Source: Bacteroidales bacterium
GTDB taxonomy: Bacteria > Bacteroidota > Bacteroidia > Bacteroidales > Tenuifilaceae
Length of the DNA: 64,000 nt
Reading direction: 5' to 3'
NCBI GenBank assembly: GCA_003818205.1
Contig: RPRQ01000022.1
Span: forward strand, 71-64,070
The position numbers and the translations under genes are program-made. Below the pieces are notes generated by a model that saw only the letters and a list, made by a program, of their open reading frames with translations, did not search any database and was not told the DNA's origin. This document shows, one piece after another, positions 2,976 to 19,096 of the stretch (its first letter is position 1; each line of letters starts with the position of its first letter).

Positions 2976-3491
2976 ATGAAAAAACTACTATTATTACCAA
3001 TACTGTTAATTTTTATAACGGTATCATGTACAAAAGATGATCAGGTAGAGCCCGATTCGCAAAAGAGTAAAATAGCTCTTGGCGAAAAAGAATCACAAGC
3101 TGACGCTGTAAAGGCTGTTGCTGGCTGTCCTACTGGTTACAGACCCTGTAAACGCACAGGTTTATGCGTACCCTACAACACTAGCTATACTTGCCATACC
3201 AATGTTAGCTTAGAATACACAACCGAAACACAACGTTCAATCTCTTGCGATTGTGTATGGACAACGGTAACTACAAAAAGTCATACATATAAAGTAACAT
3301 GGGATAGTGGTTACATTCCAACTGCTGATAGAACAGGTCACACCAGAAGCATCGATTATAAATGTTTTAACACACTTAGGTGCAATATTACCTGCAATCA
3401 GGTAAAGCATTATTATTCTGGATGGTTAGCGCACAGACCAAATCCAAACAGTCCTAATTACTGTTTAGATTGTAAAATCAAGTACAGATAA
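2976..3491 (+). CDS. Cysteine-rich secreted lipoprotein, unknown function
   Basis: The signal and lipobox read LLIFITVSC. More than 12 Cys residues are spread over the mature part (CPTGYRPCKRTGLC, SCDC, CFNTLRCNITC, CLDC). I recognise no family. Confidence 0.5.
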   Translation: MKKLLLLPILLIFITVSCTKDDQVEPDSQKSKIALGEKESQADAVKAVAGCPTGYRPCKRTGLCVPYNTSYTCHTNVSLEYTTETQRSISCDCVWTTVTTKSHTYKVTWDSGYIPTADRTGHTRSIDYKCFNTLRCNITCNQVKHYYSGWLAHRPNPNSPNYCLDCKIKYR

Positions 3492-3844
3492 ACCCTCTTC
3501 GTTAAATGAAGATTATTAGCCTATTAAACAAGAATCAAAGGGTTCTACGGCGGTTTAGACTGCCGTTGAACTTTTAAAGAGGTTGCACTTGTAGCTTGTA
3601 TGCAATAGGTAAGTAGTGTTAATAGGAAAACTCCAAATTACAAAAATCAAATTACAAATAAAACCCAAATGATAAATTTTCAAACCTCAAAACGATTTGA
3701 TTATTTGGTACTTAAATAATTGGGATTTGATTTTTTTGAGTTTTACCTGCCTACCCTGCCTTCCGGCAGGCAGGCGACAGGTAGGTTATTTGAAATTTCA
3801 GGTTTATTGTGTTTTCTTAGTACCACTAAGTAATAGCATAAAAT

Positions 3845-4130
3845 ATCATTATTAACCGAGAAAAAAATCTAAAATCAATAGGTCGCAGCGATGCTGCTTC
3901 TAGTTGAAATGTAATCGCCTATTCTACAAATAGTTCGCAGCGATGCTGCTTTTCTATAGTCGCATAGCGACGACCTATTTGTAGTAATTAGAGAAAAATC
4001 AAATTCAAGCCCCATTAGGCCTGCCGCCTGCCTGCCGGTAGGCAGGGTAGGCAGGGGTGACCTATACATAGAATGTAGTAATATCAAGTATTTCATGAAT
4101 TGTATAGTATTTTAGTCGGTCAGTAGTGAT
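3845..4130. mobile_element. MITE-like repeat, copy B (complete, about 286 bp) with nested GC-rich palindrome at 4017-4056
   Basis: The termini are atcattattaaccgag (left) and the reverse complement of tagtcggtcagtagtgat (right), giving about 13/16 inverted identity. Inside are three gcagcgatgctgc/gtcgcatagcgac stem-loop units. AAAAT is present on both flanks. Confidence 0.65.
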
Positions 4131-4270
4131 AAAATATCACCTCTTGGTGGTTTATACTATGTAGCAGATTATGGTTTACCAATATTCATCCCTATGGGCT
4201 TTCATAAAATAACAGGTACCACACAAAAGAAAACACACTTTTCGTTCCATGTCAGTAGTGCTAAATATAA

Positions 4271-4318
4271 CCCCAATGGGTGATTTTACGCATTAAACCA
4301 ATTTGTAACTTTGTCAAA
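4271..4318 (+). promoter_or_regulatory. Repeated ~50-bp module ending in a Bacteroidota -7 box (TAACTTTG)
   Basis: The sequence ccccaatgggtgattttacgcattaaaccaatttgtaactttgtc is repeated almost identically at 20041-20090. TAnnTTTG lies at 4306-4313, about 75 nt upstream of the activase ATG. Confidence 0.4.
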
Positions 4319-4387
4319 ACAAGTGTTCTCCCGCACTACACATAGCTGCGACCATTGCGGAATACGCTTATTATGAGATGAAGTGTA

Positions 4388-5299
4388 ATGAGTAAATTAA
4401 AATATTTCGATATTTCATGGTTTTCGTCTGTTGATGGGCCCGGAACAAGGGTTGTATTGTACCTGTTGGGATGCCACCTAAGGTGTCCTTGGTGTCATTC
4501 TCCCCATTCATGGGAAATATCATCTCCCTTACTCTTCTTCGAAAACCGCTGCCAAAAATGCGGAAGCTGCGTGGATATCTGCCCCAATGGGGTGCATAAA
4601 ATCTCGAATGGAGCTCATCTCGTTGATCGAAGCCATTGTATTCGGTGTGGCGCATGTATTGAGATTTGCCCATCCTCCGACATTAACAAATGGAATACTA
4701 GCGCTTTAGGTTTTGTGTGTAAAGAGCTGGAGGTGGGGGAACTTTATCAAATACTAAAACCTCAGCTGGATTTATTAAAAGACATTGGAGGTTTAACAAT
4801 ATCAGGCGGCGATCCGCTATTACAATCCGAAGCCTTGGCCGAATTACTGAAAATTTGCTCGATGAACGGAATTCATACAACCGTTGAAACATCTGCAACC
4901 CTAAACAAAAAGCATATTGAAGACCTGCTGCCATTTGTCGATCATTGGTTAATTGGTTTACGTCCAACCAAAACAGATAAAGTGGAAGATTGGAAGCAAC
5001 TTCTAACGAATATTGAACTATTAGCGGCGCATAACCCGAATCAAATAACCATTCGAACGCCTATTATTCCCGGATATACTAATACACAAATTGCTTACGA
5101 TATGATAATAGAGGTTATGCATACGAATGGAATTAAATCGATAGAAATTCTTCCATACAATCCCTATTCCGAAAACTATTACAAAGCGATGGGTTTAAAA
5201 TTTCCTTTGGAAGGAACACAATTGTTAAGCGAAGAGGAGTTAATTCAAATAAAAAGTGTTTTTACTTCGGCAGGAATCCATACGGAAATTGTTGCTTAA
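4388..5299 (+). CDS. Glycyl-radical enzyme activating enzyme (radical SAM)
   Basis: The radical SAM motif CxxxCxxC is present (GCHLRCPWCHSP). Two ferredoxin-type clusters follow (CQKCGSCVDICP, CIRCGACIEICP), as in non-PFL GRE activases. Confidence 0.85.
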   Translation: MSKLKYFDISWFSSVDGPGTRVVLYLLGCHLRCPWCHSPHSWEISSPLLFFENRCQKCGSCVDICPNGVHKISNGAHLVDRSHCIRCGACIEICPSSDINKWNTSALGFVCKELEVGELYQILKPQLDLLKDIGGLTISGGDPLLQSEALAELLKICSMNGIHTTVETSATLNKKHIEDLLPFVDHWLIGLRPTKTDKVEDWKQLLTNIELLAAHNPNQITIRTPIIPGYTNTQIAYDMIIEVMHTNGIKSIEILPYNPYSENYYKAMGLKFPLEGTQLLSEEELIQIKSVFTSAGIHTEIVA

Positions 5300-5361
5300 A
5301 ATGATAAAATAAAACAATGTTGTTTAACCTCGATGTTGTATATGGATTTTCATAATTTTCT

Positions 5362-5490
5362 AAACCACGCCTTTTAAGGCGTGGTTTAGATGCAAAAAAA
5401 ACTCTAGGGCTTTAGCCCAAACCATAGAGTTGTTATTGGGCTAAAGCCCATGTTTAGTGTAGTTTTCATCCACGCCTTAAAAGGCGTGGT
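5362..5490. repeat. Cluster of four self-complementary hairpins (A-B-B'-A') between the activase and GRE genes
   Basis: The four units are aaaccacgccttttaaggcgtggttt (5362-5387), gggctttagccc (5407-5418), gggctaaagccc (5438-5449) and ccacgccttaaaaggcgtgg (5470-5489). Confidence 0.8.
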
Positions 5491-5552
5491 TATAATTTGG
5501 TTCTTAGCTATATGATATTGAAATATAAACTAACAAACGAGGAGACATTATT

Positions 5553-8393
5553 ATGAATGAATTGATTAAAGAAGAAACGATTATCGGTTCAACTTACCGG
5601 GTTAATGAATTGATCAAGTCGATGGAGAAACGTGCTTGGGCCGATCGTTCATCGGAATGGTTTACCAAGGATATGTTTAAGAAAATTGGTGTTGAGCATC
5701 CCGATAAATCAGTAATTGTTCGTCGAGCACTGGCTATAGAGGAAATCCTTAAAGCCATGACGAATAAAAATCTATTCAAGGGTAAGAATCCACACTATCA
5801 GATAAGAAATGGCGAGCTGATTGTTGGTGTTATCGCCCTAGGATCGCTGGGTTTGGGGAAGTCTTTTCCCGATTATCTTACCCCAAGCGAATTGGATGTT
5901 ACCTCGGTATCCACCAAGTCCGAAATGGGTTTATTTGGGCACGATTCGGTAAACTATGATGTTATGCTTGCAAGAGGCCTCGAAGGGATTATCGCAGATT
6001 GCAAAAAGGAGCTTAAATCAACTGAGCATAAGATTAATCATTACAATATTCTTTCAGATTATTGCGACAGAATTGAAAACGAAGGCGCATTTAATAAAAA
6101 GATAACCAATCTCAAGTCAAATGGTAAAACAACTGACATTATTGAAAGTTTAAAGGGAGTTTTCGAAGATCATGATGAAAGCAAAGGTAATAGAACTAAA
6201 GCGTATGATTCAAATTTGAAAGGATTATTCGAAATTTTAGAAACCCATATTCACACTAATTTTAGTAATATTTCCAAAAAACGCAGTAGTAAACAAGAAC
6301 CGTCTAGTTTTCCTTATCTAAAACAGATTAGAGAAATATTAAAAAGCAAAAAAAATATTCTTCATAATAGACAAGACTTTTATCAATCAGTAAAAATTAG
6401 CTGTCAGGCTGTTATTGATTACGCAGGTCGGTTCTCGGAATTGGCTAAAGCAATGAGTTTAGATGAAAAAGACCCTATCCGTAAGGCTGAATTGAACGAA
6501 ATAAGTAGAATTTGTAGTAAAGTTCCTGCAAAACCTGCAAGCACATTCTACGAAGCACTTCAATCCATCTATTTCTTTCACCTTGCCCTGCACAGTAGCA
6601 TGAGCCAATTATCGTTGGGTCGGCTCGATCAGGTACTGCAACCCTACTATAAGAAAGAGGATCATGAAAAACAGCAGGAACTCTTCGAATGCTTTCTGAT
6701 AAAATGTGCCGAGCGTTTGATTCTCGATTCAACAACTTTTGTCAAGCAAGATCACCTCGATTTTGGTTCAAACCTGCTTACTATTCCCGTACCTCTCGAT
6801 CAGTGGTCTGAATCAAACGAGTTCCTGCAAAATATCATTATCGGAGGGCAAACCCGCGATGGTAAAAATGCGGTGAATGACTGTACCTATCTTATCCTTA
6901 AAGCATTTCAGAAAACAAAACTTTATACTCCTACCTTGAATGCAAGGATTTATAAGGAGCAGCTGGAGGATGGCAAATATTTGAATGCGGTGGCTGAGTG
7001 CTTGTTTGAAACCAAAAATGGAATGCCGGTTATTGGGAATGATGAGGTACTTATTCCTGCCCTGCATAAATTCTCTGGTATCCCCTTGGATGAAGCAAGA
7101 GACTATGTAATTGATGGCTGCTGGGAACCATTACTCAATGGCTCCTGCGACTGGACTTTTAGAATGTTCAATATGCTTACCGCACTGGAATGTGCTTTAA
7201 ACGGAGGTGCTACGCTAAGTTCAAATGAGATATTGCTAAGAGGACAGAAGATGACCTACGAAACGGCTTTACCAGCAGTGGATAAAAGCATAGACTTTGA
7301 GGGATTGAAGGGCATCCTTAAAAAGCATATCAAGTTCTTTACCGATAATTCGGCATTAAGCATTCATATGCTATACCTAATTGATCAGGCAGTCAACCCC
7401 GATCCATTGTATTCCGCTTTACTAAAGGGGTGTATGAAGACCGGAAGGGATAAAACATGGGGAGGAGCCGATTATAAACTAGCCGGAATTATCCCCGCAG
7501 CTGTGCCCGATACAGTAAATACATTATCAGCAATTAAGAAATGGGTGTATGATAAAAAAGAGTTTGAATTGGCGGATGTTTTGGATGCCTTTAGAATGAG
7601 TTATAAGGGTGCAAATAAAGTCCAACAAGAGTTGTTCGATAAGATAAAACTCAAATTCCAAACAGATTCTCCAAAATTTGGTAATAATGATAAAGAATCG
7701 GTAGAGATGATGCAATGGGTGCTAAATACATTCTGGGATTGTGTTAAGGAATCGCACGCATTAGCCGAGGAGGTATTTTTATATCCACCGAAGAAAGGGG
7801 ATGAAGCAAGAATAAAATCTCTTAGAGCGCTGGCTGGTTATGCTGGAAAGTCATTAAAAGAAGAGTTTGGTGAGAATTTTAAGATAAATATTACCGCCGG
7901 AATGGGAACATTTGAGCTGTTCGACATATTCGGTGGTGGAAATGCCGCTTCGGCCGACCGCATTAAGGCTGGTGAACCTATTGCCCGAAATTTTGCGCCT
8001 ATGGTAGGAACAACTAGCTTTAGCATTGGGCATCTCTTAGCATCATTCAAAAAACTAGGGCTTAATCGATTTGCTGGTGGGGCTATCACCGACCTATGTC
8101 TCGAAGAAAGGGATTTAGAAAAGAATGGTCCCAACATAATTAAGTCTGTTATCCAGAACTTTATGTATAATGATGGCAATATGATGACCATCACTATTTC
8201 TGATAAAAAATTATTGGGCTTAATCTATAGCTTATGTGAGAAAAACAGGGGTGGTGATGAGGCAGCTAAAAAGGAGCTAAAGAAATATGAACATGTCAGC
8301 GTTCGAGTAGGTGGTTTCCAGATGCCTTTCGTCACTTTGCCGCCAGCAATGCAGAAGAGCTATATCGATAGGCCAATGTCTCCGATTAATTAA
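5553..8393 (+). CDS. Glycyl-radical enzyme of unknown substrate (PFL-fold, C-x-E type), 946 aa
   Basis: The C-terminal glycyl radical motif is VRVGGFQMPF, with Gly921 at nt 8313-8315. The thiyl loop is IDGCWEP, with Cys523 and Glu525 at nt 7119-7127. A GAGGAG lies 8 nt upstream of the ATG. Confidence 0.85.
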   Translation: MNELIKEETIIGSTYRVNELIKSMEKRAWADRSSEWFTKDMFKKIGVEHPDKSVIVRRALAIEEILKAMTNKNLFKGKNPHYQIRNGELIVGVIALGSLGLGKSFPDYLTPSELDVTSVSTKSEMGLFGHDSVNYDVMLARGLEGIIADCKKELKSTEHKINHYNILSDYCDRIENEGAFNKKITNLKSNGKTTDIIESLKGVFEDHDESKGNRTKAYDSNLKGLFEILETHIHTNFSNISKKRSSKQEPSSFPYLKQIREILKSKKNILHNRQDFYQSVKISCQAVIDYAGRFSELAKAMSLDEKDPIRKAELNEISRICSKVPAKPASTFYEALQSIYFFHLALHSSMSQLSLGRLDQVLQPYYKKEDHEKQQELFECFLIKCAERLILDSTTFVKQDHLDFGSNLLTIPVPLDQWSESNEFLQNIIIGGQTRDGKNAVNDCTYLILKAFQKTKLYTPTLNARIYKEQLEDGKYLNAVAECLFETKNGMPVIGNDEVLIPALHKFSGIPLDEARDYVIDGCWEPLLNGSCDWTFRMFNMLTALECALNGGATLSSNEILLRGQKMTYETALPAVDKSIDFEGLKGILKKHIKFFTDNSALSIHMLYLIDQAVNPDPLYSALLKGCMKTGRDKTWGGADYKLAGIIPAAVPDTVNTLSAIKKWVYDKKEFELADVLDAFRMSYKGANKVQQELFDKIKLKFQTDSPKFGNNDKESVEMMQWVLNTFWDCVKESHALAEEVFLYPPKKGDEARIKSLRALAGYAGKSLKEEFGENFKINITAGMGTFELFDIFGGGNAASADRIKAGEPIARNFAPMVGTTSFSIGHLLASFKKLGLNRFAGGAITDLCLEERDLEKNGPNIIKSVIQNFMYNDGNMMTITISDKKLLGLIYSLCEKNRGGDEAAKKELKKYEHVSVRVGGFQMPFVTLPPAMQKSYIDRPMSPIN

Positions 8394-8597
8394 ACAAGGT
8401 TCTGTTTTAAAATGTTGTGGGAAATAAAAGAAATAACGCCACGAAGACTCAAAGGCGCAAAAAAATAGACTTGTCTGAACCTCGTGTCTTTGTGACTTTG
8501 CTCCTTCGCTGAAGCTTCGGCGTAAGCGTTGTGGCAAAACTTTATTCTACAATTTGCTAAAACACAATCTTAAACAATAACATTTAAATAAGCAATT

Positions 8598-9692
8598 ATG
8601 AAAAAAATTCTTTTCGTATCCGGTTTACTACTATTAATCGGAGCATGTCAATCGCAATCATACAAATTTGCGGTATTGTGCGATACCAGAAGCGATGCGG
8701 ATAAAAATGGGATTACCGGAGTAAATGTATCTGCCGTTAAAGGGGTATGTAGCCATCTAAAGAATTCGGGGGCTGAGTTTGTTTTAGCCCCGGGCGATTT
8801 TATTTGTGGTAATGTAACCTGGTATAATTCAACAAAAACACCTCCCGACAATCAGACCCAGTATCAGGCATTTTTAACCGCTTGTCGATCGGTAGGCGTT
8901 GGTTTGCCTAGTGATAATGACAAAATTGCGCTCTATGCCGTACGAGGCAACCATGAATGTTACCAGCAGATTCTGCCTAAAAAAACCATTGAGGAAGCCT
9001 GGTTAAAGAGTATTGGTTACTCACTACCCAAGAATGGCCCTGATAAAGAGATAGGTTTCACCTATAGCTTTGTTTACAAGGGCTCATTGTTTATTGGTTT
9101 GGATCAATATATACATGCAAATGCAGCCCAAAAAGATAGCATAACCATTGATCAGAAGTGGTTAGATAAGGAGTTACTCAAATACCCCGACTCCAAACAT
9201 GTATTCGCTTTTGGACATACCCCTGCTTTTGCTGCTCAACATCAGGATTGTTTGGGACAAGACTCAATCGCCAGAAATAAATTTTTACAATCGATAAACA
9301 GTCGTTCAGGTGTTTATTTCTGTGGGCACGATCATTTCTATGCACGAGCCGATGTTCCGGTTTACAAACCGAATGGTGGAATCGAAAACTATATGCAGCA
9401 GGTAATCACCCCGAGTGGTGCTCCTTTCCTTGGAGGATTCAGCCCTAAGTGGAATGGTGAGTACAAGAATCAAAGTGTAAAAACAGAATCATACATCGAC
9501 AATGCCGTGGGATATCAGCTGGTAACTGTTGATGGGAATAAGGTCACCGTTGAGTTTATTGCCACTAATGATGCATGTACATTTACTATCGATTCTACCG
9601 GAGCGTATTCCTATACCTATAATGATAACTGGCAAAAATGGAATTTTGTAACAATGTCAAAGTTTTCATATGAATTACCGATAGGAAAGTAA
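8598..9692 (+). CDS. Secreted metallophosphoesterase lipoprotein (calcineurin-like)
   Basis: The lipobox reads LLLIGAC. The motifs GDFICGN, VRGNHE, GHTPAF and GHDHFY are present. Confidence 0.75.
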   Translation: MKKILFVSGLLLLIGACQSQSYKFAVLCDTRSDADKNGITGVNVSAVKGVCSHLKNSGAEFVLAPGDFICGNVTWYNSTKTPPDNQTQYQAFLTACRSVGVGLPSDNDKIALYAVRGNHECYQQILPKKTIEEAWLKSIGYSLPKNGPDKEIGFTYSFVYKGSLFIGLDQYIHANAAQKDSITIDQKWLDKELLKYPDSKHVFAFGHTPAFAAQHQDCLGQDSIARNKFLQSINSRSGVYFCGHDHFYARADVPVYKPNGGIENYMQQVITPSGAPFLGGFSPKWNGEYKNQSVKTESYIDNAVGYQLVTVDGNKVTVEFIATNDACTFTIDSTGAYSYTYNDNWQKWNFVTMSKFSYELPIGK

Positions 9693-9743
9693 AAGCACAA
9701 AAAGATGAGTTGTTTAATCTTGAGCAATAGAAAAATGTAACTA

Positions 9744-9915
9744 CTCACCACGGAGATCACAGAGGTTTGTTTCATTAATCACAGAACAGTAACCTTGATT
9801 AGTTCTTTTAAACGTACAAAACAAATACATTTTATTTGAGCAGTCGTCATGCCAGAAATAGATTAATATTTGTTTTTATTCTCATTTGTTCTCTGTGATC
9901 TCTGTGTCTCCGTGG
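9744..9915. repeat. Inverted-repeat-bounded ~170-bp element (cacggagatcacagag arms)
   Basis: The left arm is ctcaccacggagatcacagagg and the right arm is ctctgtgatctctgtgtctccgtgg. It belongs to the same word family as 2841-2899. Confidence 0.6.
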
Positions 9916-9993
9916 TTTTTGTTCATTTCGACTACTGGTGAATAGTTACGAAAAAATAAGTACAAGTATATTTTAAAAACTAAAAAAATAACA

Positions 9994-11922
9994 ATGGAAA
10001 CAAAATACGGATACATGGGCAGAATCCTTTGGATAGACTTAACTAAAGGTACGTTTAAGGATGAAAAAATCCCTGATAAGGTATATGAAGACTTTCTGAG
10101 TGGTTATGGACTAGCATCTAAAGTTATTTACGAGAACCAGCCCATTGGTATTGACTATCGCGATGAACGTAGCATAATTTCTGTTATGAGCGGTATTTTA
10201 ACCAATACAGATGCTGGCTTCAACGGTCGTTGGATGCTAGCAGGGAAAAGTCCTTTAACAGGATGCTGGGGTGATGCAAACTGTGGTGGCAATTTTGGAC
10301 CTTCGATAAAGAGGAGTGGCTACGATGGGATTTTTATCACAGGAAAAAGCGATAAGCCGGTTTATATTTATATCGATGATAAACACAAACAAATTCTACC
10401 CGCAGAAGAATTATGGTCCCGTAAAGATGCTGTTGAGACAGAGGATATTCTGATAAAAAAGCACGGTAAGGATGCAAAGGTAATCTGTATTGGCAGTGCG
10501 GGTGAAAATTGCTCGCTCATCTCGGGTGTTGTAAACGACGGCGGTCGCCTTGCGGCACGAAGCGGATTAGGTGCCTTGTTTGGTGTTAAGCAGCTGAAAG
10601 CCATTTGTCTCAATGGTTCTCAAAAGGTTTATGAGCATAATAAAGCGGAGGTACGGAAAGCAACCGTTGAGCTAGCTAATGCATTAAACAATTCTACAGA
10701 TTCATTTTGTACTACAATGAAGTGGTCGGGAACAGCAGGTACTACCGACGACTCCGTTAAAACAGGTGATTCGCCAATAAAAAATTGGGCAGGTGTTGCC
10801 AAAGATGATTTTCCGCAAGAAAAAGCGTCAAAGATTAGTGGGTATTCAGTAACAAAGTATCAGGAAAAGGAATACTACTGTGCTGACTGCACATTTGGTT
10901 GCGGTGGAATTTGTTCCGTTAAACATAATCCATTACTGAAAAAAACGCATCGCCCAGAATACGAAATACTAGCCGGATTTGGTGCTTTAGTGCTATGCGA
11001 TGATGTGATGGCCATATTCGAAATCAATGAAAAGTTAAACCGAGCAGGTTTCGATGCCATTAGCGTTGCAACAACCGTAGGATGGGCTTTCGAAGCCTAT
11101 GAAAAAGGATTGTTTAAAGATAAGTTTCCAAAAATAAAGCTTAAATGGGGTGATTCGAAAGCCTTAGTTGAATTGGTGGACGATATTATTGCGAATAAGA
11201 ACCTTGGAGCCTATTTAAAGGATGGCGTAAAAAAAGCGGCTGAGTATTTTGATAAAGAGGGAAAAACAGCCCCAATGCACGTGCATGGTCAGGAACTTCC
11301 AATGCACGATTCGCGCAAAGATGGCTCTTTGAGCCTTGGTGTTGGCTATGAAGTTGAGCCCACTCCGGGTCGTCATACATCCACAAATGCGCAATGGGAG
11401 CAAATGGCCGATACGCATAGTGCCGATGCCGTATTGAATGATAATAAGTTGAATATTAAATTCCAGAAAAGGTATTTACATACAGATATGTCGCACGAGG
11501 AGCAGGGGCAGGATTTAATGGCTGCTAGCTGTTCAGAAGATATTATAAACGGCGCAGGACTATGTAACTTTAGCTTTATGGGACCTTATGTTCCTGTGGT
11601 ATCCTGGCTGAATAATGTTACCGGATGGAATAAATCCTTTGAAGACTATATAGAAATAGGCAGAAGAATAAAAACAGTTCGTCATTCATTTAATATCCGA
11701 GAGGGAATTGATGTAGCCAATATAAAAGCTCCCAGTAGGGCTAAAGGAGATAATACTCTGAAAGATGGACCCAATGCCTATAGCGCTAATGTATTGAAGT
11801 GGGATGACGCAAAAGCCGATTATTATATCTCCATGGGATGGGATGTTGATACCGCTAAACCATCAGCTCAAACCCTAAAAGATTTGGGATTAGGCTTTGT
11901 TGCTAAAGATCTTTATAAATAA
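9994..11922 (+). CDS. Aldehyde:ferredoxin oxidoreductase family (tungsto/molybdopterin AOR)
   Basis: The N-terminus MGRILWIDLTKG is AOR-typical. A CxxCxxxC cluster (YYCADCTFGC) and the GAGLCNF motif are present. The length (642 aa) fits the family. Confidence 0.85.
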   Translation: METKYGYMGRILWIDLTKGTFKDEKIPDKVYEDFLSGYGLASKVIYENQPIGIDYRDERSIISVMSGILTNTDAGFNGRWMLAGKSPLTGCWGDANCGGNFGPSIKRSGYDGIFITGKSDKPVYIYIDDKHKQILPAEELWSRKDAVETEDILIKKHGKDAKVICIGSAGENCSLISGVVNDGGRLAARSGLGALFGVKQLKAICLNGSQKVYEHNKAEVRKATVELANALNNSTDSFCTTMKWSGTAGTTDDSVKTGDSPIKNWAGVAKDDFPQEKASKISGYSVTKYQEKEYYCADCTFGCGGICSVKHNPLLKKTHRPEYEILAGFGALVLCDDVMAIFEINEKLNRAGFDAISVATTVGWAFEAYEKGLFKDKFPKIKLKWGDSKALVELVDDIIANKNLGAYLKDGVKKAAEYFDKEGKTAPMHVHGQELPMHDSRKDGSLSLGVGYEVEPTPGRHTSTNAQWEQMADTHSADAVLNDNKLNIKFQKRYLHTDMSHEEQGQDLMAASCSEDIINGAGLCNFSFMGPYVPVVSWLNNVTGWNKSFEDYIEIGRRIKTVRHSFNIREGIDVANIKAPSRAKGDNTLKDGPNAYSANVLKWDDAKADYYISMGWDVDTAKPSAQTLKDLGLGFVAKDLYK

Positions 11923-12125
11923 GAAACGCTTGCAGTATTTACACTTATACAAATGCGTAGTAATTTGTTGTAAAAGCTAGCTTAACGATAAAAACACAGT
12001 TGCATTGAGATTATAAGCAAGTAAAAACCATTGAGCTCGACGGCGACTTGTCCGACTACTATCGGATAACGCCGTCGTTCTATTAATACAGGCATGGAGT
12101 AGTGAGATAGTTGACAGTAGTTAGG

Positions 12126-12217
12126 AGTCAGAAGACGGGAGTCGGGAGTCGGAAGTCAGGTGTCAGAAGTCGGAAGTCAGAAGTCAGGAGTCGGAAGTCA
12201 GGAGTCAGAAGTCAGAA
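12126..12217. repeat. Heptanucleotide microsatellite GTCRGRA, about 12 units
   Basis: It reads agtcagaa..gtcggaagtcaggtgtcagaagtcggaagtcagaagtcaggagtcggaagtcaggagtcagaagtcagaa. A short reverse-complement copy lies at about 22518-22545. Confidence 0.85.
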
Positions 12218-12228
12218 CCCAACTCCGG

Positions 12229-12346
12229 ATGCTGAGCCTGTCGAAGCATCACCTCTCTGCATGCTAAGACTTTCGAAGCATAATCTCCCCGTATGCTAAG
12301 CCTTTCGAAGCATAATCTTTCTGTATGCTGAGCCTGCCGAAGTATC
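12229..12346. repeat. 32-nt tandem repeat x3.7; each unit is a small hairpin (atgct..agcat)
   Basis: Units start at 12229, 12261, 12293 and 12325, an exact 32-nt period. The unit is atgctaagcctttcgaagcataatct plus about 6 variable nt. Confidence 0.85.
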
Positions 12347-12660
12347 AAATTATTTCATCTTCAAATTTTCAAATTAATTTTTTTCGTTTAACTTTATAAG
12401 GAAATCACTTACAAACAATCCGTTAACGGGTTATTTTCTGATTATTGAGGTGCGGTTGAATTTTATATTCAATAAGTGTGTAGTTGTAGGACGGTAATTT
12501 AAGAGTTCGTTTTATTTAACGATATGGCAAATTTCATAAACATAAACCGCTCCATAATGGAGTTAATATATCGACCTGAAAAGGATGCGTATTAGTATAA
12601 ATGGTAAAAAATAAAAGAGTTGTATACCATTGAATAAACAATAATAATCAAACTAAGTCT

Positions 12661-14130
12661 ATGTCAAAATTCAAACTTCTTTTCACTGAGTATTTTGATA
12701 TTGAGGAATCAATATTAACAAATTATGGTGCTCTTAACATTTGTTTAAGTTCGGACATTCCCCTGTTTATAGACCCATTTTTATTGTTTGCTTCTGAAAA
12801 AACGGAATACAAAAAACTACATAAACACGTTGTAGACCACTTACTTTTTCTAAAAAAATATGCAACAGAAAATGAATTTAAAGATATTGACCTTAGACTC
12901 TTTAGGTTTCCTGAGATAAAACAAAATTGGTTAGGTTTAGCTCAATATGGAAATGGAGGAAAAGGTTTAGGACCTAGATTTGCAAAAAATGCAATAAAGG
13001 CATTTAATGGTTTTTATAAATCCTTTGGTGAAGAAAAGATTACAGATGAAACGCATATAGAAAAACTAACACTTTTAAATTCAGGAGTTGGAAAGGATTT
13101 CATTAGTGATTTTTCTACTAATTTAATCTACGAGTACCTTTTGGAGTATACTGAGAAATTCGCTATTACTAATCTGAAAGAAAGCCAAGTAACAGAGTTC
13201 TCAATTAGATGTAAATTCAATAAAGAAACCAAAACATGGCAACCTAGGACTTTCAAACTCCCATATTTTTTTAGAGAAAAGGGAGGTGATTTTATTCTGC
13301 TTACTCCGCTTGATATTTTAACTATTGATGAAGCTATTATTAATAGCTCTGATTTCTATAATAATTTTAATAATGTAACGCGTTCAATAGGAAATGATTC
13401 TTTAAGAACAGCAATCAATGATTATTTTAGGTCGCATCTGCCAAGAAAACCAAAGAAAAAAGATAGATTTAAAGCTTTCGTTCAGACTGTTGAGCAATAT
13501 CCCGATTTAGTTGACCTATATATTAGAATCAAAGAAGACAGTAAAAAAGTAGCTGGAGCTATTGCATTTTCTAAAATTGAAGAGATTAGAGAGCATTTAA
13601 TTGATGCATTAACTCCGTTGTGTAATTTATTAAATGAAAATAGTGAGTTTTATACAGTAAAACCAAATAGTTATGACGAAGCTCTAAAAAGAGCTAATTA
13701 CCTGAAAGATGTTATTGAGAACAATGATGGATATAGGATTTTCTATGATGGCTCAAGACCAATTGCAAAAGAAGATACAATTCAGAGAATTTTTAGGTTA
13801 ACATGGTATGCTTCACCATACGATGTGAATTCAGAAGTAAATAATGGTAGAGGTCCTGCAGATTATAAGGTATCTTTTGGTAGTGGAGACTCTACAATTG
13901 TTGAATTTAAACTAGCAAAATCATCGTCTCTTCAAACAAACCTAGAAAATCAAACTAACATTTATAAAGCTGCTTCAAAATCCTCAAGTGATATTTCGGT
14001 AGTTTTATGCTATACTTCAGCAGATATCCGAAAAGTAAATCGGATATTAAAATTAATTGGAAAAGAAGGACATGAGAATATTATTATAATAGATGCAACA
14101 CCTAAGATTTCTGCATCTAAAGTGAAATAA
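12661..14130 (+). CDS. Hypothetical 489-aa protein with a C-terminal PD-(D/E)xK-like nuclease motif
   Basis: GRGPADYKVSFGSGDSTIVEFKLAKSS gives D401 ... E415-x-K417 (nt 13861-13911). The gene is very AT-rich compared with its neighbours. The N-terminal ~390 aa are unrecognised. Confidence 0.45.
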   Translation: MSKFKLLFTEYFDIEESILTNYGALNICLSSDIPLFIDPFLLFASEKTEYKKLHKHVVDHLLFLKKYATENEFKDIDLRLFRFPEIKQNWLGLAQYGNGGKGLGPRFAKNAIKAFNGFYKSFGEEKITDETHIEKLTLLNSGVGKDFISDFSTNLIYEYLLEYTEKFAITNLKESQVTEFSIRCKFNKETKTWQPRTFKLPYFFREKGGDFILLTPLDILTIDEAIINSSDFYNNFNNVTRSIGNDSLRTAINDYFRSHLPRKPKKKDRFKAFVQTVEQYPDLVDLYIRIKEDSKKVAGAIAFSKIEEIREHLIDALTPLCNLLNENSEFYTVKPNSYDEALKRANYLKDVIENNDGYRIFYDGSRPIAKEDTIQRIFRLTWYASPYDVNSEVNNGRGPADYKVSFGSGDSTIVEFKLAKSSSLQTNLENQTNIYKAASKSSSDISVVLCYTSADIRKVNRILKLIGKEGHENIIIIDATPKISASKVK

Positions 14131-14178
14131 AAACCACTGCTGGCGCGGACATGTTGTCCGCGCCAGCAGTGGTTTTTT
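14131..14178 (+). terminator. Rho-independent terminator (perfect 21-bp stem plus T-run)
   Basis: aaaccactgctggcgcggaca tgt tgtccgcgccagcagtggttt tttt begins immediately after the stop codon at 14128-14130. Confidence 0.85.
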
Positions 14179-14268
14179 ACATTAATATTTATTGTTAACA
14201 AATTGAAAATATATAATTTACCATTAATTTGGTTACAATAATAAATTTAAAACTAAGGAGGAAAAACT

Positions 14269-14400
14269 ATGGGAATTAAGCCAGGCCCTAAAAGGATTGC
14301 TAAAACAACAGGGCAACCAGACAAACGTCAACGAGACAACAAAGAAACTCCGAAAAATACCCCTTCACAAAAACCTCACAAACACAAGAAAGGAGACTAA
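14269..14400 (+). CDS. Possible 43-aa highly basic small protein
   Basis: It is not in the ORF track because it is under 60 aa. The translation is MGIKPGPKRIAKTTGQPDKRQRDNKETPKNTPSQKPHKHKKGD. It is preceded by a strong AAGGAGG 6-7 nt upstream, which is unusual in this window. Confidence 0.35.
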   Translation: MGIKPGPKRIAKTTGQPDKRQRDNKETPKNTPSQKPHKHKKGD

Positions 14401-14513
14401 CATAACATTAATGACCTTGATTTTCTCTACGCTAGGCGTTGTCCTTCTCGGCTCGGCATAGATTGAGCGCAGCGGAGACAGAAAGCACAACAATATAAAA
14501 TGATATTACAAGT

Positions 14514-14975
14514 ATGAAAAATTTATTTTTTTTCACGGGATTGCTTTTATTGACCTTTTGTTCATTTGGTCAAATGAAAGAAACTTCTGGAGATATTAAT
14601 TTTAGAACATCCCCAGAAATTAGAGAAAACAAAATATGTGTAATACCAAAAGGTACAGTTGTTAATATAATTCAAGATACAGTTGAATTTGAAAACTGGA
14701 TAAAAATAAATTATAATGGAAAGAATGGATATGTTTACAATACTTTTCTTAAAGATATATCCATTGATTCAAAGAAGAAGAACAATATTAATTCTTCTGA
14801 TAATGGAGTTAAATATTATAAAAATTCAAATGGTGAAAAAGTTCAGTCTCCTACAAAATATGATTCACCACCAGTTGGAGCAACTGCAGAATGTAATGAT
14901 GGAACATACAGTTTTAGTAAAAGTCGTAGAGGAACATGTTCTCACCATGGAGGTGTAAAACGATGGTTAAAGTAA
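14514..14975 (+). CDS. Secreted SH3b-like plus DUF3761 protein
   Basis: A signal peptide is present. INFRTSPE..VIPKGTVVNI..WIKINYNGKNGYVY looks like a bacterial SH3 domain. The C-terminal CNDGTYSFSKSRRGTCSHHGGV matches the DUF3761 signature. Confidence 0.6.
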   Translation: MKNLFFFTGLLLLTFCSFGQMKETSGDINFRTSPEIRENKICVIPKGTVVNIIQDTVEFENWIKINYNGKNGYVYNTFLKDISIDSKKKNNINSSDNGVKYYKNSNGEKVQSPTKYDSPPVGATAECNDGTYSFSKSRRGTCSHHGGVKRWLK

Positions 14976-15149
14976 AGTATTTATACTTATCCGCACCTAC
15001 GCTTACGCTCACGCGGATTTGCAATCTCGGCTCGGCTTAGATTGAGCGCAGCAGAATCTAAATCGTGTAAACCAACTATCTCAGTCCGCACCAAATACAA
15101 ACCCACCAAAGCCAACATAATAAATATTGAAATATGAATTAACTAAAAG

Positions 15150-15989
15150 ATGAAATTAGATAACGATTTAATTGAGCCAAAATATTCAAAGAAGGATTTA
15201 AAATGGTCCATTCTATTACTATTTGGATGCTTTTGTATTGGATGGAATGTTGCCAATGTCCTGCATGAGCTGGGTCATGCATTTGCAATGGCATTGGTAG
15301 GAGTTCCTATTAAAGAATTCGTATTAAACCCCTTTTCGTGGTGTTGGACCTTTGCGGAGTACCAGAAGTATTCACTGCTTTTATCACTTGGTGGGGTAAC
15401 ATTTGGTCTCTTATTCGTTATACTTCCTTCCTTTGCAGCCATTTGGATTCGAAGCGCTTATTTCCGAATACCTGCATTTACAATCGCCGCTTGGGCTCTA
15501 TCAATGGATGGAATATACCTGCTAACCGGTGCTCTGTTCAGTGCTGGTGATGGTAAGGAAATAGTCGAATTTGGTGCACCTTATAGCCTCGTTATATTTC
15601 TTGGTTGCCTATATTTGATGTTAGCCCTATTTATGTTTGGGTTGATTCATCCACTGGTTGGAATTGGTAAAAATTCATCTATTACAAAAAGGTTTTTAAT
15701 ATTTGGAGCTGCTGTATTTCCTTACCTCCTAATGATATTCTTGTATAACTTCATACTGAATAGAAGAGAGATATTGCTTTGGACCTCATTTGTTCTGGGA
15801 GGAGTAGTGCTTATTTGGATGTCTGCTGTTGCTGGATATTTTTGGGCTAGAATTGGTAAAGGATTTGATGAAATCAATCGAACAAAAATAGGCTGGAAGC
15901 CTGTGATAATATTTCTGATCATCGGATTTATTATAATTGCCGGAGAGTTTTTGATCTTTGGTATTCATGAAAACCCGTTTGGGAAGTAA
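15150..15989 (+). CDS. Polytopic membrane protein with an HExxH motif (putative intramembrane zinc metalloprotease)
   Basis: LHELGHAF lies in the first TM segment, and there are about 7 hydrophobic helices. This resembles the M50/site-2-protease arrangement. Confidence 0.4.
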   Translation: MKLDNDLIEPKYSKKDLKWSILLLFGCFCIGWNVANVLHELGHAFAMALVGVPIKEFVLNPFSWCWTFAEYQKYSLLLSLGGVTFGLLFVILPSFAAIWIRSAYFRIPAFTIAAWALSMDGIYLLTGALFSAGDGKEIVEFGAPYSLVIFLGCLYLMLALFMFGLIHPLVGIGKNSSITKRFLIFGAAVFPYLLMIFLYNFILNRREILLWTSFVLGGVVLIWMSAVAGYFWARIGKGFDEINRTKIGWKPVIIFLIIGFIIIAGEFLIFGIHENPFGK

Positions 15990-16069
15990 TAGTTGGAAAA
16001 ATATATTAACCGATCGCGTGAACATGCTGTCCGTGCGCCAATAGTACAAGACTTAAGAACATACTACCT

Positions 16070-16480
16070 ATGAAGAGTATATTTACTGATAAGGATAAAC
16101 AACCTAATGATAACGATTTGAAAGAGTCGTTGGGTGAAACATATCAATTATGGCAGCTGATTAAGGATTATGTTATTTCGAAATACCCGAAAGGATTTGA
16201 GGAGTGGAGCTGTTCAAAATACGGTTGGAGTTTAAGGATTAAGGATGAAAAGCGAGCGATAATCTATCTCTTACCAAGAGACAGATTCTTTAAAGTAGCA
16301 TTTGTGTTTGGACAAAAAGCAACCGACATGATAATGAAAAGTCAGATTGCAAATTCGATTAAAACAGAGCTCGATTCTGCGAAAGTTTATGCCGAAGGTC
16401 GAGGGATTAGGGTTGATATTATGGACAGAACGATTATTAGCGATATACAAAAGTTAGTTGATATTAAAATGGCTAACTAA
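16070..16480 (+). CDS. DUF3788-like protein
   Basis: The size and the pattern KYPKGFEEWSCSKYGWSLRIKDEKRAIIYL.PRDRFFKVAFVFG match this family as I remember it. Confidence 0.5.
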   Translation: MKSIFTDKDKQPNDNDLKESLGETYQLWQLIKDYVISKYPKGFEEWSCSKYGWSLRIKDEKRAIIYLLPRDRFFKVAFVFGQKATDMIMKSQIANSIKTELDSAKVYAEGRGIRVDIMDRTIISDIQKLVDIKMAN

Positions 16481-16632
16481 AACACCGCTCGCGCGGACTA
16501 CTTGTCCTGCAAGGCGGGATGCTATCAGTGCGCCATTATGAATGTATTTATAGAAATGTCACGGACTGTAAGTCCGCGCCAGCAGGCCAATATTTCAGCC
16601 CTACAGGCTTATTTTAGTTCATAAATAACAGA

Positions 16633-16702
16633 AACCTCTACTTTTCAACGTATCTACTTTTCCGCAAAGGCAAAAAGATTAGCTTAATAAATTTGTCAAT
16701 AG
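16633..16702 (+). promoter_or_regulatory. Repeated promoter-like module (..tatctactt.tc.gcaaaggcaaaa.gatta..TAAATTTG)
   Basis: It aligns with 19041-19096, and with a decayed copy at 23336-23368. It ends in a TAnnTTTG box about 70 nt upstream of namA. Confidence 0.4.
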
Positions 16703-16767
16703 TTCGAACAACATAATAATTTTTGAGTTATAAGAGAAAACAAATGCTAGCAAGTAATTGCATTTAA

Positions 16768-17841
16768 ATGTTAACCAGTATGTCAAAACTACTATCACCG
16801 CTCAAAATAAGAGATATTGAATTAAGGAATCGGATTGTAATCTCCCCGATGTGCATGTATTCTGCTGTTGATGGGTTCGCCAACGACTGGCACTTAGTGC
16901 ATCTTGGAAGCCGTGCAACAGGTGGAGCAGGATTAGTTATACAGGAGGCAACTGCTGTTTCTCCTGAAGGTAGAATTTCGCCCGGTGATCTAGGGTTGTA
17001 TAACGAGGGGCATATCGAAATGCTACAGAGAATCACCTCATTTATTCACAGTCAGGGAGCAATTGCAGGGATCCAAATTGCTCACGCCGGAAGGAAAGCA
17101 AGCTGCGCTAAACCATGGGATGGAGGAAAACAGGTTAAGAAAACGGATGGTGGTTGGACAACCGTTGCTCCTTCAGCACTTCCTTTTTATCCCGATGATG
17201 AAGCGCCACAAGCGCTTGATATAGATGGAATACAGAAAGTAATCGCTGATTTCCAAAATGCTGCCAAACGTGCACTAAAAGCAGGTTACAAGCTGGTTGA
17301 AATACATGCAGCGCACGGATATCTGGTTCACCAGTTTCTTTCACCCTTGAGCAACCATCGAACCGATAGTTATGGCGGTAGCTTCGAGAATAGGATACGC
17401 CTGTTGCTTGAAATCGTAGAAGGAGTAAGGGGTGTTTGGCCTTTATATCTGCCTTTGTTTGTGCGTATATCGGCCACCGACTGGGCTGAGGGAGGTTGGA
17501 ACCTCGATGAGTCGGTAAAACTTGCAGCAATACTGAAAGATAAGGGTGTTGACCTAATCGATACCTCATCAGGAGGAATGGTGCACAATGCAAAGGTTAC
17601 CGTTGGTCCGGGTTATATGGTTCCTTTTGCGGAGCGTATCAAAAAAGAGTCAGGCATTTTAACGGGCGCTGTTGGTTTGATAACCCAAGCGCAGCAAGCC
17701 GAGGATATTTTACAAAAAGGGGAGGCTGATCTAATCCTTATAGCAAGGGAATCGCTCAGGAATCCATATTTTGCAATAAACGCTGCAAAAGAGCTTGGTG
17801 ATGAGCATAAATGGCCTCTTCAATATCTTAGAGCGAAATAG
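16768..17841 (+). CDS. namA: NADPH dehydrogenase, Old Yellow Enzyme family (YqjM/NamA type)
   Basis: The segments LRNRIVISPMCMYS, DWHLVHLGSRATGGAGLVIQEATAV, HAAHGYL.HQFLSP and NHRTD.YGGS are present. The true start may be the ATG at 16780. Confidence 0.85.
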   Translation: MLTSMSKLLSPLKIRDIELRNRIVISPMCMYSAVDGFANDWHLVHLGSRATGGAGLVIQEATAVSPEGRISPGDLGLYNEGHIEMLQRITSFIHSQGAIAGIQIAHAGRKASCAKPWDGGKQVKKTDGGWTTVAPSALPFYPDDEAPQALDIDGIQKVIADFQNAAKRALKAGYKLVEIHAAHGYLVHQFLSPLSNHRTDSYGGSFENRIRLLLEIVEGVRGVWPLYLPLFVRISATDWAEGGWNLDESVKLAAILKDKGVDLIDTSSGGMVHNAKVTVGPGYMVPFAERIKKESGILTGAVGLITQAQQAEDILQKGEADLILIARESLRNPYFAINAAKELGDEHKWPLQYLRAK

Positions 17842-17913
17842 TTTTTTCCATTCTGAATAGATAAACTAAAGGATTGCCCTTAAAAAATGGACAATCCTTC
17901 GTTCTAAAATTAT

Positions 17914-18687
17914 CTATATCTTCTTCCCAATATAGAATACATAGCCATAGTACTCTTTATACTTGAAGTATAATTGAGTTTCGTGCCTTTCGCTCGCTAT
18001 GAACTCTTCAGCAGTTTTATTCCCTTCATATTTCTTAAGGAAGATTTCCTGCGCCTTAGCCTGCGGAGTATAGAAATGCTCTATCCAGCAATTTTCGGGT
18101 AGAATAAATGCGGCAACAGGGATATACCCAGTTTTTTGCATTTGGTTAACCTTATTAGGAATAGTATCTATGCCCGAATAAGCATTTTGCCAAAACTCAT
18201 CTATTTCAGTAGGCCTTTCATCGGTAAACCAGGATGCCTCGGAAACAGCAATGTAGCCTCCCGTTTTCAGGAATTTACGCCACTCATTCAAGCCCCGTTC
18301 AAAACCGATATTATAGATTGCTCCTTCAGACCAGATAAGGTCTAACTCTTCACTCTGAAAAGGAAGGTTGTCCATCGAACCTACGACACCTTTTACTCTA
18401 TCTTGAAGATTCAGCTTAATGGCATTCAAGTTGAACAGTTCGATAAACTTAGGAAACAGGTCGATACCTGCAATATGGCCCAATGCATGCTGTGCTAGAA
18501 CCATTGTCTGACCGCCTGTTCCGCAGCCAATGTCGGCAATAAGGGATTCGTTGGTAAGATTATCGATAAAATTCAATGCTTTAATGGTTACTTCGGGGCT
18601 ACCTGGCCCTTGTCGTACTACACTTGAAAAATATTCGCAGATTAAATTGACATCGAAATCGTGAATTGATTTATTTTCGTTACTCAT
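17914..18687 (-). CDS. Class I SAM-dependent methyltransferase
   Basis: Motif I is [12 protein letters not shown], followed by the downstream [11 protein letters not shown]. Confidence 0.75.
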
Positions 18688-19040
18688 GATTTTAATTTTT
18701 TTTTATTGTTGAAATCAGGGTATAGGAATATAATATATCCTTTACCAAGCCTCAAAATATATTAATATATTGAAATGAAAATAACTCCGACAAGATAATG
18801 TCAGAGTATATTAAAGGGATAACCAAAGGCAGAATACCAAAGGTTATTTACTTCACCAAATCCTTCTTAGAATTAAACATCCAATGTTTTTAGATTGAGC
18901 AAAGGTAAAGATTTTTTTATTATGTTGATTATTTACTAAATTTTGTTCACTTTTTAAGCTGTGGTAGTAAGCAATTAAAACAAATTATTAGTTGACAGTT
19001 AACACCTGCCAGACCGGTAGGCAGGGTTAATGGTTCACGG

Positions 19041-19096
19041 TAACCTCTAACATATCTACTTGTCAGCAAAGGCAAAATGATTAACTTTGTAAATAG
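19041..19096 (+). promoter_or_regulatory. Second copy of the promoter-like module (ends TAACTTTG)
   Basis: The sequence is aacctctaacatatctacttgtcagcaaaggcaaaatgattaactttgtaaatag, about 120 nt upstream of the ATG at 19215. Confidence 0.4.

Follow-up and report, generated by a model that had tools for sequence, protein, structure and literature searches.

The window examined here is a 64,000-nt stretch of contig RPRQ01000022.1 (assembly GCA_003818205.1) from the metagenome-assembled genome of a Bacteroidales bacterium. The locus under study encodes an oxygen-sensitive glycyl radical enzyme (GRE), the radical SAM activase (AE) of that enzyme, an exported metallophosphoesterase (MPE) and an enzyme of the aldehyde:ferredoxin oxidoreductase (AOR) family, with repeats and palindromes lying in and around the cluster, as shown in Table 1. 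An earlier note, made from the letters of this DNA alone, had described four same-strand genes, and all four open reading frames (ORFs) were found on the forward strand between 4388 and 11922. The activase carries the CxxxCxxC motif and the two ferredoxin motifs claimed for it (C29xxxC33xxC36, with CxxCxxCxxxC at C55-C65 and again at C84-C94), though its ORF starts at 4388 and not at 4271. It scored 213 bits against TIGR02494 (cut-off 174) in the curated-model search. DNA stretches of relatives that were compared with the window carry the locus numbers L001 to L138.

Table 1. Genes and sequence features in and around the GRE locus (positions of the window).
Feature	Position	Strand	Details
Activase (GRE-activating radical SAM enzyme), 303 aa	4388-5299	+	TIGR02494; adjoins the GRE on the upstream side in nearly all family loci
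GRE, 946 aa	5553-8393	+	PF02901; key residues His130, Asp521, Cys523, Glu525, Gly921
Exported MPE, 364 aa	8598-9692	+	PF00149; lipoprotein-type signal
AOR-family enzyme, 642 aa	9994-11922	+	PF02730 and PF01314; W or Mo pterin and [4Fe-4S] cluster
-7 motif match	4306-4313	+	TAACTTTG, match to Bacteroidetes -7 motif TAnnTTTG; about 75 bp upstream of activase start
Nested palindrome	5359-5491		Activase-GRE gap; outer arms 5363-5384 and 5470-5491; inner arms 5407-5420 and 5436-5449
16-nt inverted repeat	9749-9764 and 9891-9906		MPE-AOR gap
Repeat-rich stretch, about 900 bp	3492-4387		Upstream of activase, without ORFs
36-nt inverted repeats	3746-3781 and 4020-4055		94% complementary, flanking 238 nt
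AATAG(G/T)TCGCAGCGATGCTGCTT	3877 and 3929		Two copies
Tandem 7-nt units	12096-12221		GGAGTCA / GAAGTCA; just downstream of AOR stop
32-nt unit	12225-12377		Four copies, each with an ATGCT...AGCAT hairpin
489-aa ORF	12661-14130		DUF8370 and DUF8371
Tandem tRNA genes	63682-63754 and 63776-63848	-	

The GRE matched PF02901 (PFL-like) with 362 bits. Its Cys loop reads D521-G-C523-W-E525 and its C-terminal glycyl loop R918-V-G-G921-F, and the numbering previously given for Cys523, Glu525 and Gly921 is correct in the sequence. The Pfam scan reported no match to PF01228 (Gly_radical), so the C-terminal domain is divergent; in a profile search the C-terminus was aligned with the glycyl loops (RVAGY) of glycerol dehydratase (GD) and CutC, C523 was aligned with GD Cys433 and CutC Cys489, and H130 with GD His164 and His166 of 1,2-propanediol dehydratase (PD) in the beta1 G-H motif. 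An AlphaFold2 model of the GRE (pLDDT 91.9, pTM 0.92) resembled GD, HypD, CutC and PD about equally in Foldseek, with TM scores of 0.74-0.81 on the target, 1r8w as top match (TM 0.79) and 18-21% identity to solved GREs. Among PDB sequences, CutC and GD were the best matches (E about 1e-51), covering residues from about 272 to 713 only. When characterised enzymes were ranked with a family profile, CutC (2.6e-102), GD (3.4e-90) and PD (4e-89) stood on top together with the Archaeoglobus PFL2 and a second PD, while the decarboxylases (1e-38 to 1e-59) and X-succinate synthases took the bottom ranks. The GRE scored far under the cut-off of every curated GRE family model: 259.9 bits for TIGR01774 (GD/PD, PFL2-3; cut-off 678.2), 211.7 for TIGR04394 (CutC; 1050), 200-210 for the HpsG and HpfG models (1000), 187.9 for NF043068 (HypD; 1100), 139.7 for the IAD model (1100) and 118.7 for the HPAD model (1150), so that the CutC, HpfG/HpsG, HypD, PflD-type, IAD and HPAD models together gave 119-212 bits with all cut-offs at least 1000. 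Judged from these comparisons of sequence and predicted fold, the GRE is a member of an eliminase-type clade outside all characterised ones, as the earlier note had supposed.

The same note had called the GRE an orphan, which proved wrong, as its family is large, with 463 or more relatives in metagenomes. A protein search returned close relatives of about 950 aa at 51-87% identity and a set of about 830 aa from many phyla at 41-49%, with the family spanning Bacteroidales, Geobacteraceae, Clostridia, Fibrobacter and Chlorobiaceae. A genome scan yielded 47 loci and a metagenome scan 463 confirmed relatives, 80 of which were fetched, and 90 loci with the family motif were obtained. Members come from sediment, groundwater, and rumen and gut anaerobes, and cultured carriers include Williamwhitmania taraxaci (L134), Clostridium cellulovorans 743B (L133) and Anaeromicropila populeti. 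A single metagenome, JGI24698J34947 (L091-L100, L110, L112), holds at least 12 distinct contigs with different family members, so in that habitat the family must be both abundant and diverse.

In all 79 full-length members, H130, D521, G522, C523, W524, E525, G783, G785, F787 and G921 are invariant, as is R918, while T535 is kept in 72 of the 79; the catalytic residues are also invariant in other sets of 25 and 104 relatives. This constancy of catalytic-type residues suggests that the family probably has one chemistry. Features that are invariant in this family only are Asp521 and Trp524 in the Cys loop, the beta8 motif G783-x-G785-T-F-E and an N-terminal G-L-G-K-x-F-P-x-Y motif, and the Bacteroidales 950-aa branch alone has a helical insertion, about 100 aa long (residues from about 160 to 265).

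The CxE motif of the Cys loop is kept by all C-O, C-N and C-S eliminases and by isomerases, and the active-site His and Glu have established roles in the dehydratases (PMC13450708); HPAD and IAD are also CxE enzymes and PhdB is CxQ. Since His130 together with Glu525 forms the dehydratase pattern, C-O elimination on a vicinal diol-like substrate appears to be the most likely chemistry of the GRE. The B12-independent GD and PD (PDB 1R8W, 5I2A, 9RCO) share with it the fold, the CxE Cys loop and the beta1 G-H motif (VGHVSVDY in GD, FGHDSVNY in the window GRE), as well as a dedicated three-cluster activase and the predicted aldehyde product. However, identity to GD is about 21%, Gln352, Thr535 and Gly785 stand in the places of GD Ser282, Asp447 and Tyr640 (the last pair by motif matching), and Asp521 and Trp524 do not occur in GD/PD. 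The partners differ as well: the window has an AOR and an exported phosphoesterase, and lacks the 1,3-propanediol dehydrogenase, CoA-acylating aldehyde dehydrogenase and microcompartment associated with GD/PD.

CutC is the best sequence and profile match (8e-52 in phmmer, with the top profile rank given above), shares the W-T that follows the Cys loop (CutC Trp501-Thr502, here Trp534-Thr535) and likewise has an aldehyde as product, its substrate being a head-group alcohol obtainable from a phosphoester. Identity with CutC was nevertheless rejected on the score below its cut-off and on the active site, where Asp216 corresponds to His130, Phe395 to Leu425 and the Tyr506 position is variable; a cut-type microcompartment is likewise absent from the locus. 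In YbiW/PflD, the isomerases of anhydro-sugar phosphates, which are also CxE GREs, C-O elimination beside a carbinol radical opens a sugar ring. These enzymes set a precedent for sugar-type substrates of GREs. They are distant from the window GRE (profile E from about 1e-63 to 1e-71), act on substrates that are phosphorylated intracellularly and pass their products to aldolases, whereas the window has an exported phosphoesterase and an AOR after the GRE. Two further candidates were discarded: an aminoacyl radical enzyme with Ala, Ser or Thr at the radical site, as G921 is invariant in the relatives, and the toluene-forming decarboxylase PhdB, to which an AOR might supply phenylacetate and which, having neither a structure nor a curated model, is set apart by the Cys-loop motif only (CxQ in PhdB, CxE here).

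The C-S lyases were examined in the same way. IslA binds its sulfonate through Arg189, Gln193 and Arg678, and Gln193 lies at a beta1 'common site' that corresponds to HypD His160 and CutC Asp216 (PMC8473560). In the family, residue 126, which corresponds to Arg189, is Gly, Ser or Ala, and Gln193 is replaced by His130; the beta8 G783-x-G785-T-F carries no Arg at the IslA Arg678-type position, as judged by motif matching and not by alignment to IslA. IslA, IseG and HpsG were rejected as identities on these residues. By analogy with isethionate sulfite-lyase, the GRE might instead cleave an organophosphorus compound, releasing phosphate from a phosphoester or phosphite from a 2-hydroxyalkylphosphonate, with the aldehyde going to the AOR. 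Though the scaffold is the CxE eliminase scaffold of IslA, IseG and HpsG, the neighbourhood has a phosphorus theme and an AOR would suit an acetaldehyde-type product, we regard this as very unlikely, given that the anion-binding Arg/Arg/Gln set of the C-S lyases has no counterpart here (for the beta8 Arg, by motif matching) and that neither a phosphonate transporter nor a phosphite dehydrogenase was seen among the neighbours.

For the neighbourhood survey, ORFs were called in all loci and clustered, and the cluster representatives were annotated; phosphoesterases were counted over 76 non-redundant loci with at least 1.3 kb downstream of the GRE, and AORs over 51 loci with at least 3.5 kb. An exported phosphoesterase adjoins the GRE in 40 of the 76 loci (29 HAD-like, 11 MPE), an association broader than could be seen from the window. 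These genes lie nearly always on the same strand as the GRE, with gaps of mostly 2-100 bp, and almost all their products have a signal peptide or a lipobox cysteine. The HAD-like partner is a lipoprotein of about 340 aa with a DxDGT motif and a weak Pfam HAD match, and its only PDB match is 4ovy, a structural-genomics entry; in L080, the position of the phosphoesterase is occupied by a UshA/CpdB-type 5'-nucleotidase.

An AOR is linked in 18 surveyed loci, plus L052, L134 and L138. The AOR adjacency noted for the window recurs in five of the six close orthologue loci that reach past the GRE (L001, L002, L003, L005 and L006; GRE identity 66-87%), and the 830-aa branch, too, has linked AORs in Bacteroidales, Geobacteraceae and other groups. 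Four gene orders were distinguished, namely AE-GRE-MPE-AOR (the window, L001, L003, L005, L006), AE-GRE-Cupin_5-AOR (L002, L052), MPE-AE-GRE-AOR (Geobacteraceae L008, L009 and L024, and Bacteroidales L047) and AE-GRE-HAD-AOR (L011, L017, L050, L109 and the isolate Williamwhitmania taraxaci, L134). The genes flanking the AOR-bearing clusters are otherwise unrelated, and the gaps within the clusters are mostly 2-100 bp; L001, L003, L005 and L006 keep the gene order of the window with gaps of 11-50 bp. The type of esterase is swapped yet the order GRE-esterase-AOR is kept, which argues for function and not for chance.

The MPE scored 38 bits against PF00149 (cut-off 21.5). Its N-terminus, MKKILFVSGLLLLIGAC, contains a signal peptide with a lipobox cysteine, read from the sequence and not from predictor output, in agreement with the lipoprotein claimed earlier. 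The metal motifs D29, G66-D67, G117-N118-H119, H207 and G243-H244-D245-H246 are invariant in 98 homologues. No match was found among PDB sequences at E < 0.5; the nearest folds of the AlphaFold2 model (pLDDT 94) in Foldseek were the purple acid phosphatases, PhoD, SMPDL3A and GpdQ. With these proteins, the phytases included, it shares the core and motifs of dinuclear metallophosphoesterases and the export signal, but the TM scores are 0.5-0.6 and the identities 13-18% only. Assignment of an esterase specificity from structure was given up, as the neighbours were only generic ones of the purple acid phosphatase, PhoD, GpdQ and SMPDL3 kinds. The MPE forms a subfamily of its own with about 60 clusters at 47-84% identity, and is syntenic in L001, L003, L005, L006, L008, L009, L024, L043, L047, L088 and L138. 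A 496-aa Amidohydro_2 protein was also observed, 50% identical between L003 (5562-7052, with a GRE) and L136 (1-9586, without a GRE); its neighbours in L136 encode a pyridoxal phosphate (PLP) decarboxylase, a dCache sensor, a WD40 protein, a caspase-like peptidase and a member of the MPE subfamily.

The assignment of the last gene to the AOR family was confirmed by both AOR domains (PF02730 with 206 bits, PF01314 with 268 bits) and by the CxxCxxxC and GLC cysteines. The protein was aligned over its full length to the Pyrococcus furiosus AOR (1AOR; E = 5e-73), in which C-A-D-C-T-F-G-C and A-G-L-C correspond to Cys288, 291, 295 and 494, the four [4Fe-4S] cysteines; equivalents of Glu313 and His448 are present, and all cofactor ligands are conserved. 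Like the P. furiosus enzyme, it stands alone, the locus having no AorA/AorC-type partner subunits, but it has about 40 extra residues, and it scored 164 bits against the only matching NCBIfam AOR model (cut-off 868). The linked AORs are 78-90% identical to that of the window in the close orthologues and 53-58% in the Geobacteraceae and HAD-type loci.

AORs oxidise arylacetaldehydes, so that the direction could be reversed, with the AOR making arylacetate or another acid from an amino-acid-derived aldehyde and the GRE acting as a decarboxylase of the HPAD, IAD or PhdB kind. The CxE motif also of HPAD and IAD, a tyrosine-decarboxylase-like PLP enzyme encoded immediately before the activase in L002 and L138 and the Amidohydro_2 protein upstream in L003 would fit such a direction. 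Decarboxylases are, however, the most distant of the eliminase-like GREs (140 bits of 1100 for IAD, 119 of 1150 for HPAD), PhdB has CxQ, no ORF for an HPAD-type small subunit is present in the locus, the PLP decarboxylase stands beside the GRE in one sublineage only (L002, L138) and its L136 copy beside an MPE homologue without a GRE, and the exported phosphoesterase of 40 loci would be left unexplained. A reversed direction is therefore extremely unlikely.

Several loci contain genes of nucleic-acid breakdown. RNase T2 was found in L008 (Pfam) and, by homology, in L024 and L061, where it directly follows the GRE; XendoU precedes the activase directly in L013 and L037 (Pfam) and L058 (blastp, 63% identity). 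An exported adenosine deaminase-like protein is encoded before the MPE in L009 and beside the MPE homologue in L137, an exported S1/P1 nuclease in L138, a non-specific endonuclease near the MPE homologue in L135, a PLD-like protein in Geobacteraceae loci and a xanthine/uracil permease in L004. These neighbours, together with the fold of the MPE, suggest that the esterase may act on nucleotides or similar phosphoesters.

We propose that the locus belongs to a conserved module for anaerobic catabolism built around a clade of putative glycyl radical 1,2-eliminases, an overall scheme to which we give a probability of about 0.5. Activase, GRE, exported phosphoesterase and AOR are encoded together, and versions of this set recur in several lineages. 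The exported MPE, replaced elsewhere by the HAD-like phosphatase or the 5'-nucleotidase-type enzyme, would hydrolyse an extracellular phosphate ester, possibly a nucleotide or another product of nucleic-acid breakdown, to phosphate and a hydroxylated organic moiety that would enter the cell. The activase would place a radical on Gly921, giving a thiyl radical at Cys523 that would take a hydrogen from the carbinol carbon, with Glu525 deprotonating its hydroxyl. The vicinal leaving group would then depart and, as in GD and PD, would most likely be a hydroxyl to which His130 gives a proton. The product would be a carbonyl compound, presumably an aldehyde in Bacteroidales and Geobacteraceae, where the AOR would turn it directly into a carboxylic acid with reduction of ferredoxin and without a CoA-acylating dehydrogenase or microcompartment. 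More speculatively, the reduced ferredoxin could help to keep the cluster of the activase reduced. The earlier note had proposed that an aldehyde passes from the GRE to the AOR and that a surface esterase frees the substrate, and this is supported by the sequence comparisons. Of the findings that the note said would refute it, neither a place of the GRE inside a characterised clade nor a lack of the AOR and phosphoesterase adjacency in related genomes was encountered.

Characterised GRE eliminases pass their aldehydes to CoA-acylating or alcohol dehydrogenases, often inside microcompartments. From about 5.5 kb upstream to 10 kb downstream of the window GRE, no family of the microcompartment shell and no Aldedh family was called, and neither shell proteins nor CoA-acylating aldehyde dehydrogenases were among the 25 most frequent families per scan of 244 neighbour proteins. 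A 2026 review of characterised GREs shows none partnered with an AOR (PMC13450708), and full-text literature searches returned no paper describing an AOR-GRE pair or this GRE family. The system is best described, from its genes, as a widespread clade of putative GRE eliminases, partnered by an exported phosphoesterase and in part of the lineages by an AOR that appears to replace CoA-dependent aldehyde handling. If the scheme is true, it would add a widespread GRE clade with an active-site signature of its own (D-G-C-W-E, G-H, G-x-G-T-F-E), a way of oxidising an aldehyde directly to an acid without CoA, with low-potential ferredoxin as a product, and a link of exported phosphoesterases or nucleases to cytoplasmic radical chemistry. 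In view of the wide range of habitats and the 12 or more loci in one metagenome, the pathway could matter where oxygen is absent, for the turnover of organic phosphorus or of carbon from nucleic acids.

Several observations weigh against the proposed module. An AOR was present in 14 of the 51 loci with enough flank and absent from about 73%, and L004, the GRE of which is 87% identical to that of the window, has neither MPE nor AOR. The AOR coupling stressed earlier thus recurs in several lineages but is a lineage-specific addition (about 27% of loci), and an aldehyde product is supported only for some lineages. Close homologues of the MPE (52-69% identity) occur without GRE or AOR in L135-L137, so the esterase does not serve this pathway exclusively; no transporter was consistently linked among the surveyed neighbour families. 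Only about 10 of some 90 loci have nuclease or deaminase neighbours, and the XendoU and PLD-like proteins lack signal peptides. In the window itself, the intergenic gaps of 253, 204 and 301 bp all contain palindromes and are longer than in the orthologues, and the activase-GRE gap is strongly structured, its nested palindrome folding as RNA with -87.7 kcal/mol (z = -7.9). A dedicated ABC transporter, considered as a clue to the substrate, was discarded because the ABC cluster was a mixed one: L011 alone has PstSCAB, L034 alone has an amino-acid type, and the remaining members are unrelated ATPases.

Some of these points would suit a phosphorus-scavenging island, in which esterases and nucleases harvest phosphate and a co-regulated GRE acts on a compound not made by the esterase. 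The partners are typical of the Pho-regulon type (an MPE near purple acid phosphatases, PhoD and GpdQ, the HAD phosphatase, RNase T2, S1/P1 nuclease and 5'-nucleotidase), MPE homologues exist without a GRE, and no transporter ties the outside reaction to the inside one. In L011, pstSCAB lies directly upstream of AE-GRE-HAD-AOR, but this is the only locus with Pst adjacency, and the best matches to PhoR and PhoB among two-component regulators near some loci scored under the cut-offs of these models. The tight same-strand esterase between GRE and AOR, kept despite the swap of type, is also easier to understand as one pathway, and we consider scavenging unlikely.

The gaps also bear on the possibility that the adjacency in the window has no functional meaning and that inserted repeats and terminators split the cluster into four independent units. 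The last hairpin of the nested palindrome (5470-5489), a possible terminator, is followed by TTATAATTTG, a weak T tail, and the GRE of L004 exists without MPE and AOR. In the GRE-MPE and MPE-AOR gaps, however, the scan scored no terminator-like site, and the same order with 11-50-bp gaps in L001, L003, L005 and L006, amid flanks that are otherwise unrelated, as well as its recurrence in distant lineages with another type of esterase, leave independent units with hardly any probability. The nested palindrome may be an inserted repeat or an attenuator; it is absent from those orthologous loci that have a gap of about 30 bp, and L004 has a different insert at the same place with about 60 nt before the GRE start conserved, so it was treated as an inserted repeat and not as a conserved regulator.

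The only forward-strand -7 motif near the cluster lies upstream of the activase, with none in the three internal gaps; co-transcription of the four genes is plausible. With 73 matches in the window against 83 expected, the motif shows no enrichment, and the site is weak evidence for a promoter. A sigma-70 promoter scan gave 17 sites against 29 in shuffled sequence and was set aside as uninformative for a Bacteroidales genome. In a search for riboswitches and known RNAs, Rfam at gathering score returned only two tRNAs in the whole window, and at E <= 1 nothing in 3400-12700.

A related cluster in L138 (GCA_016342555.1, 6557-20267) carries, on one strand, the genes PLP decarboxylase-AE-GRE950-Cupin_5-MPE-GRE844-AOR-S1/P1 nuclease, that is, two GRE paralogues of 950 aa and 844 aa with a single activase. 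The GRE844 of this cluster shares 80% identity with the GREs of L047 and L043; compared with the window proteins, the AOR is 82% and the MPE 72% identical. The layout of the window is that of L138 minus the Cupin and GRE844 genes, from which we infer that the 950-aa GRE is a diverged paralogue installed in an older MPE/GRE/AOR cluster, which it would have taken over. Both paralogue branches also coexist in the metagenome-assembled genome Cfx3-06 (L004 and L011), so some difference in substrate between the branches is possible despite identical catalytic residues.

A tentative variant of the proposed module, rather unlikely but within reason, is that the GRE catalyses a new class of reaction, with a ribonucleoside or pentose from extracellular RNA or nucleotides as substrate. 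Exported nucleases and phosphoesterases would release the sugar, the thiyl radical would attack a carbinol carbon of it, and Glu525 and His130 would expel the vicinal oxygen either by diol dehydration or by a furanose C-O opening like that of YbiW/PflD; the resulting aldehyde or dialdehyde would be oxidised by the AOR. The tandem GREs of L138 might then perform two successive steps, or steps with different substrates. If this variant were true, nucleic-acid turnover in anoxic sediments and guts would be tied to the reduction of ferredoxin.

Other gene contents were noted around some members of the family. In the basal branch and some Clostridia (L010, L029, L038, L054, L078, L083, L107 and L133), a cytoplasmic DUF2278 protein is encoded beside activase and GRE, sometimes with an FGE-sulfatase-domain protein too, and these loci are without the phosphoesterase; in Clostridium cellulovorans 743B, the arrangement occupies 4282-8562 of L133. 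For DUF2278, no PDB match and no informative literature were found. In L012 and L041 (Peptostreptococcaceae), 13000-19500, an HD-domain protein, a Ham1-SIR2 fusion and a protein of about 1300 aa are encoded downstream of the GRE, and these look like a defence-type island and not like metabolism. Directly after the AOR of W. taraxaci (L134, 11653-13414), genes for DUF4276 and an AAA_21/SMC_N ATPase lie on the opposite strand, a pair that is usually found in anti-phage islands.

The cluster of the window is bordered by repeats on both sides. The ORF-free stretch upstream of the activase, with its 36-nt inverted repeats and the two short repeat copies between them, could be an insertion resembling a miniature inverted-repeat transposable element. 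Downstream of the AOR, beyond the 7-nt and 32-nt repeats, the ORF with DUF8370 and DUF8371 has about 30% GC compared with about 40% for the cluster and is not conserved downstream of orthologous clusters. The two tandem tRNA genes near the far end of the window have identical Rfam scores.

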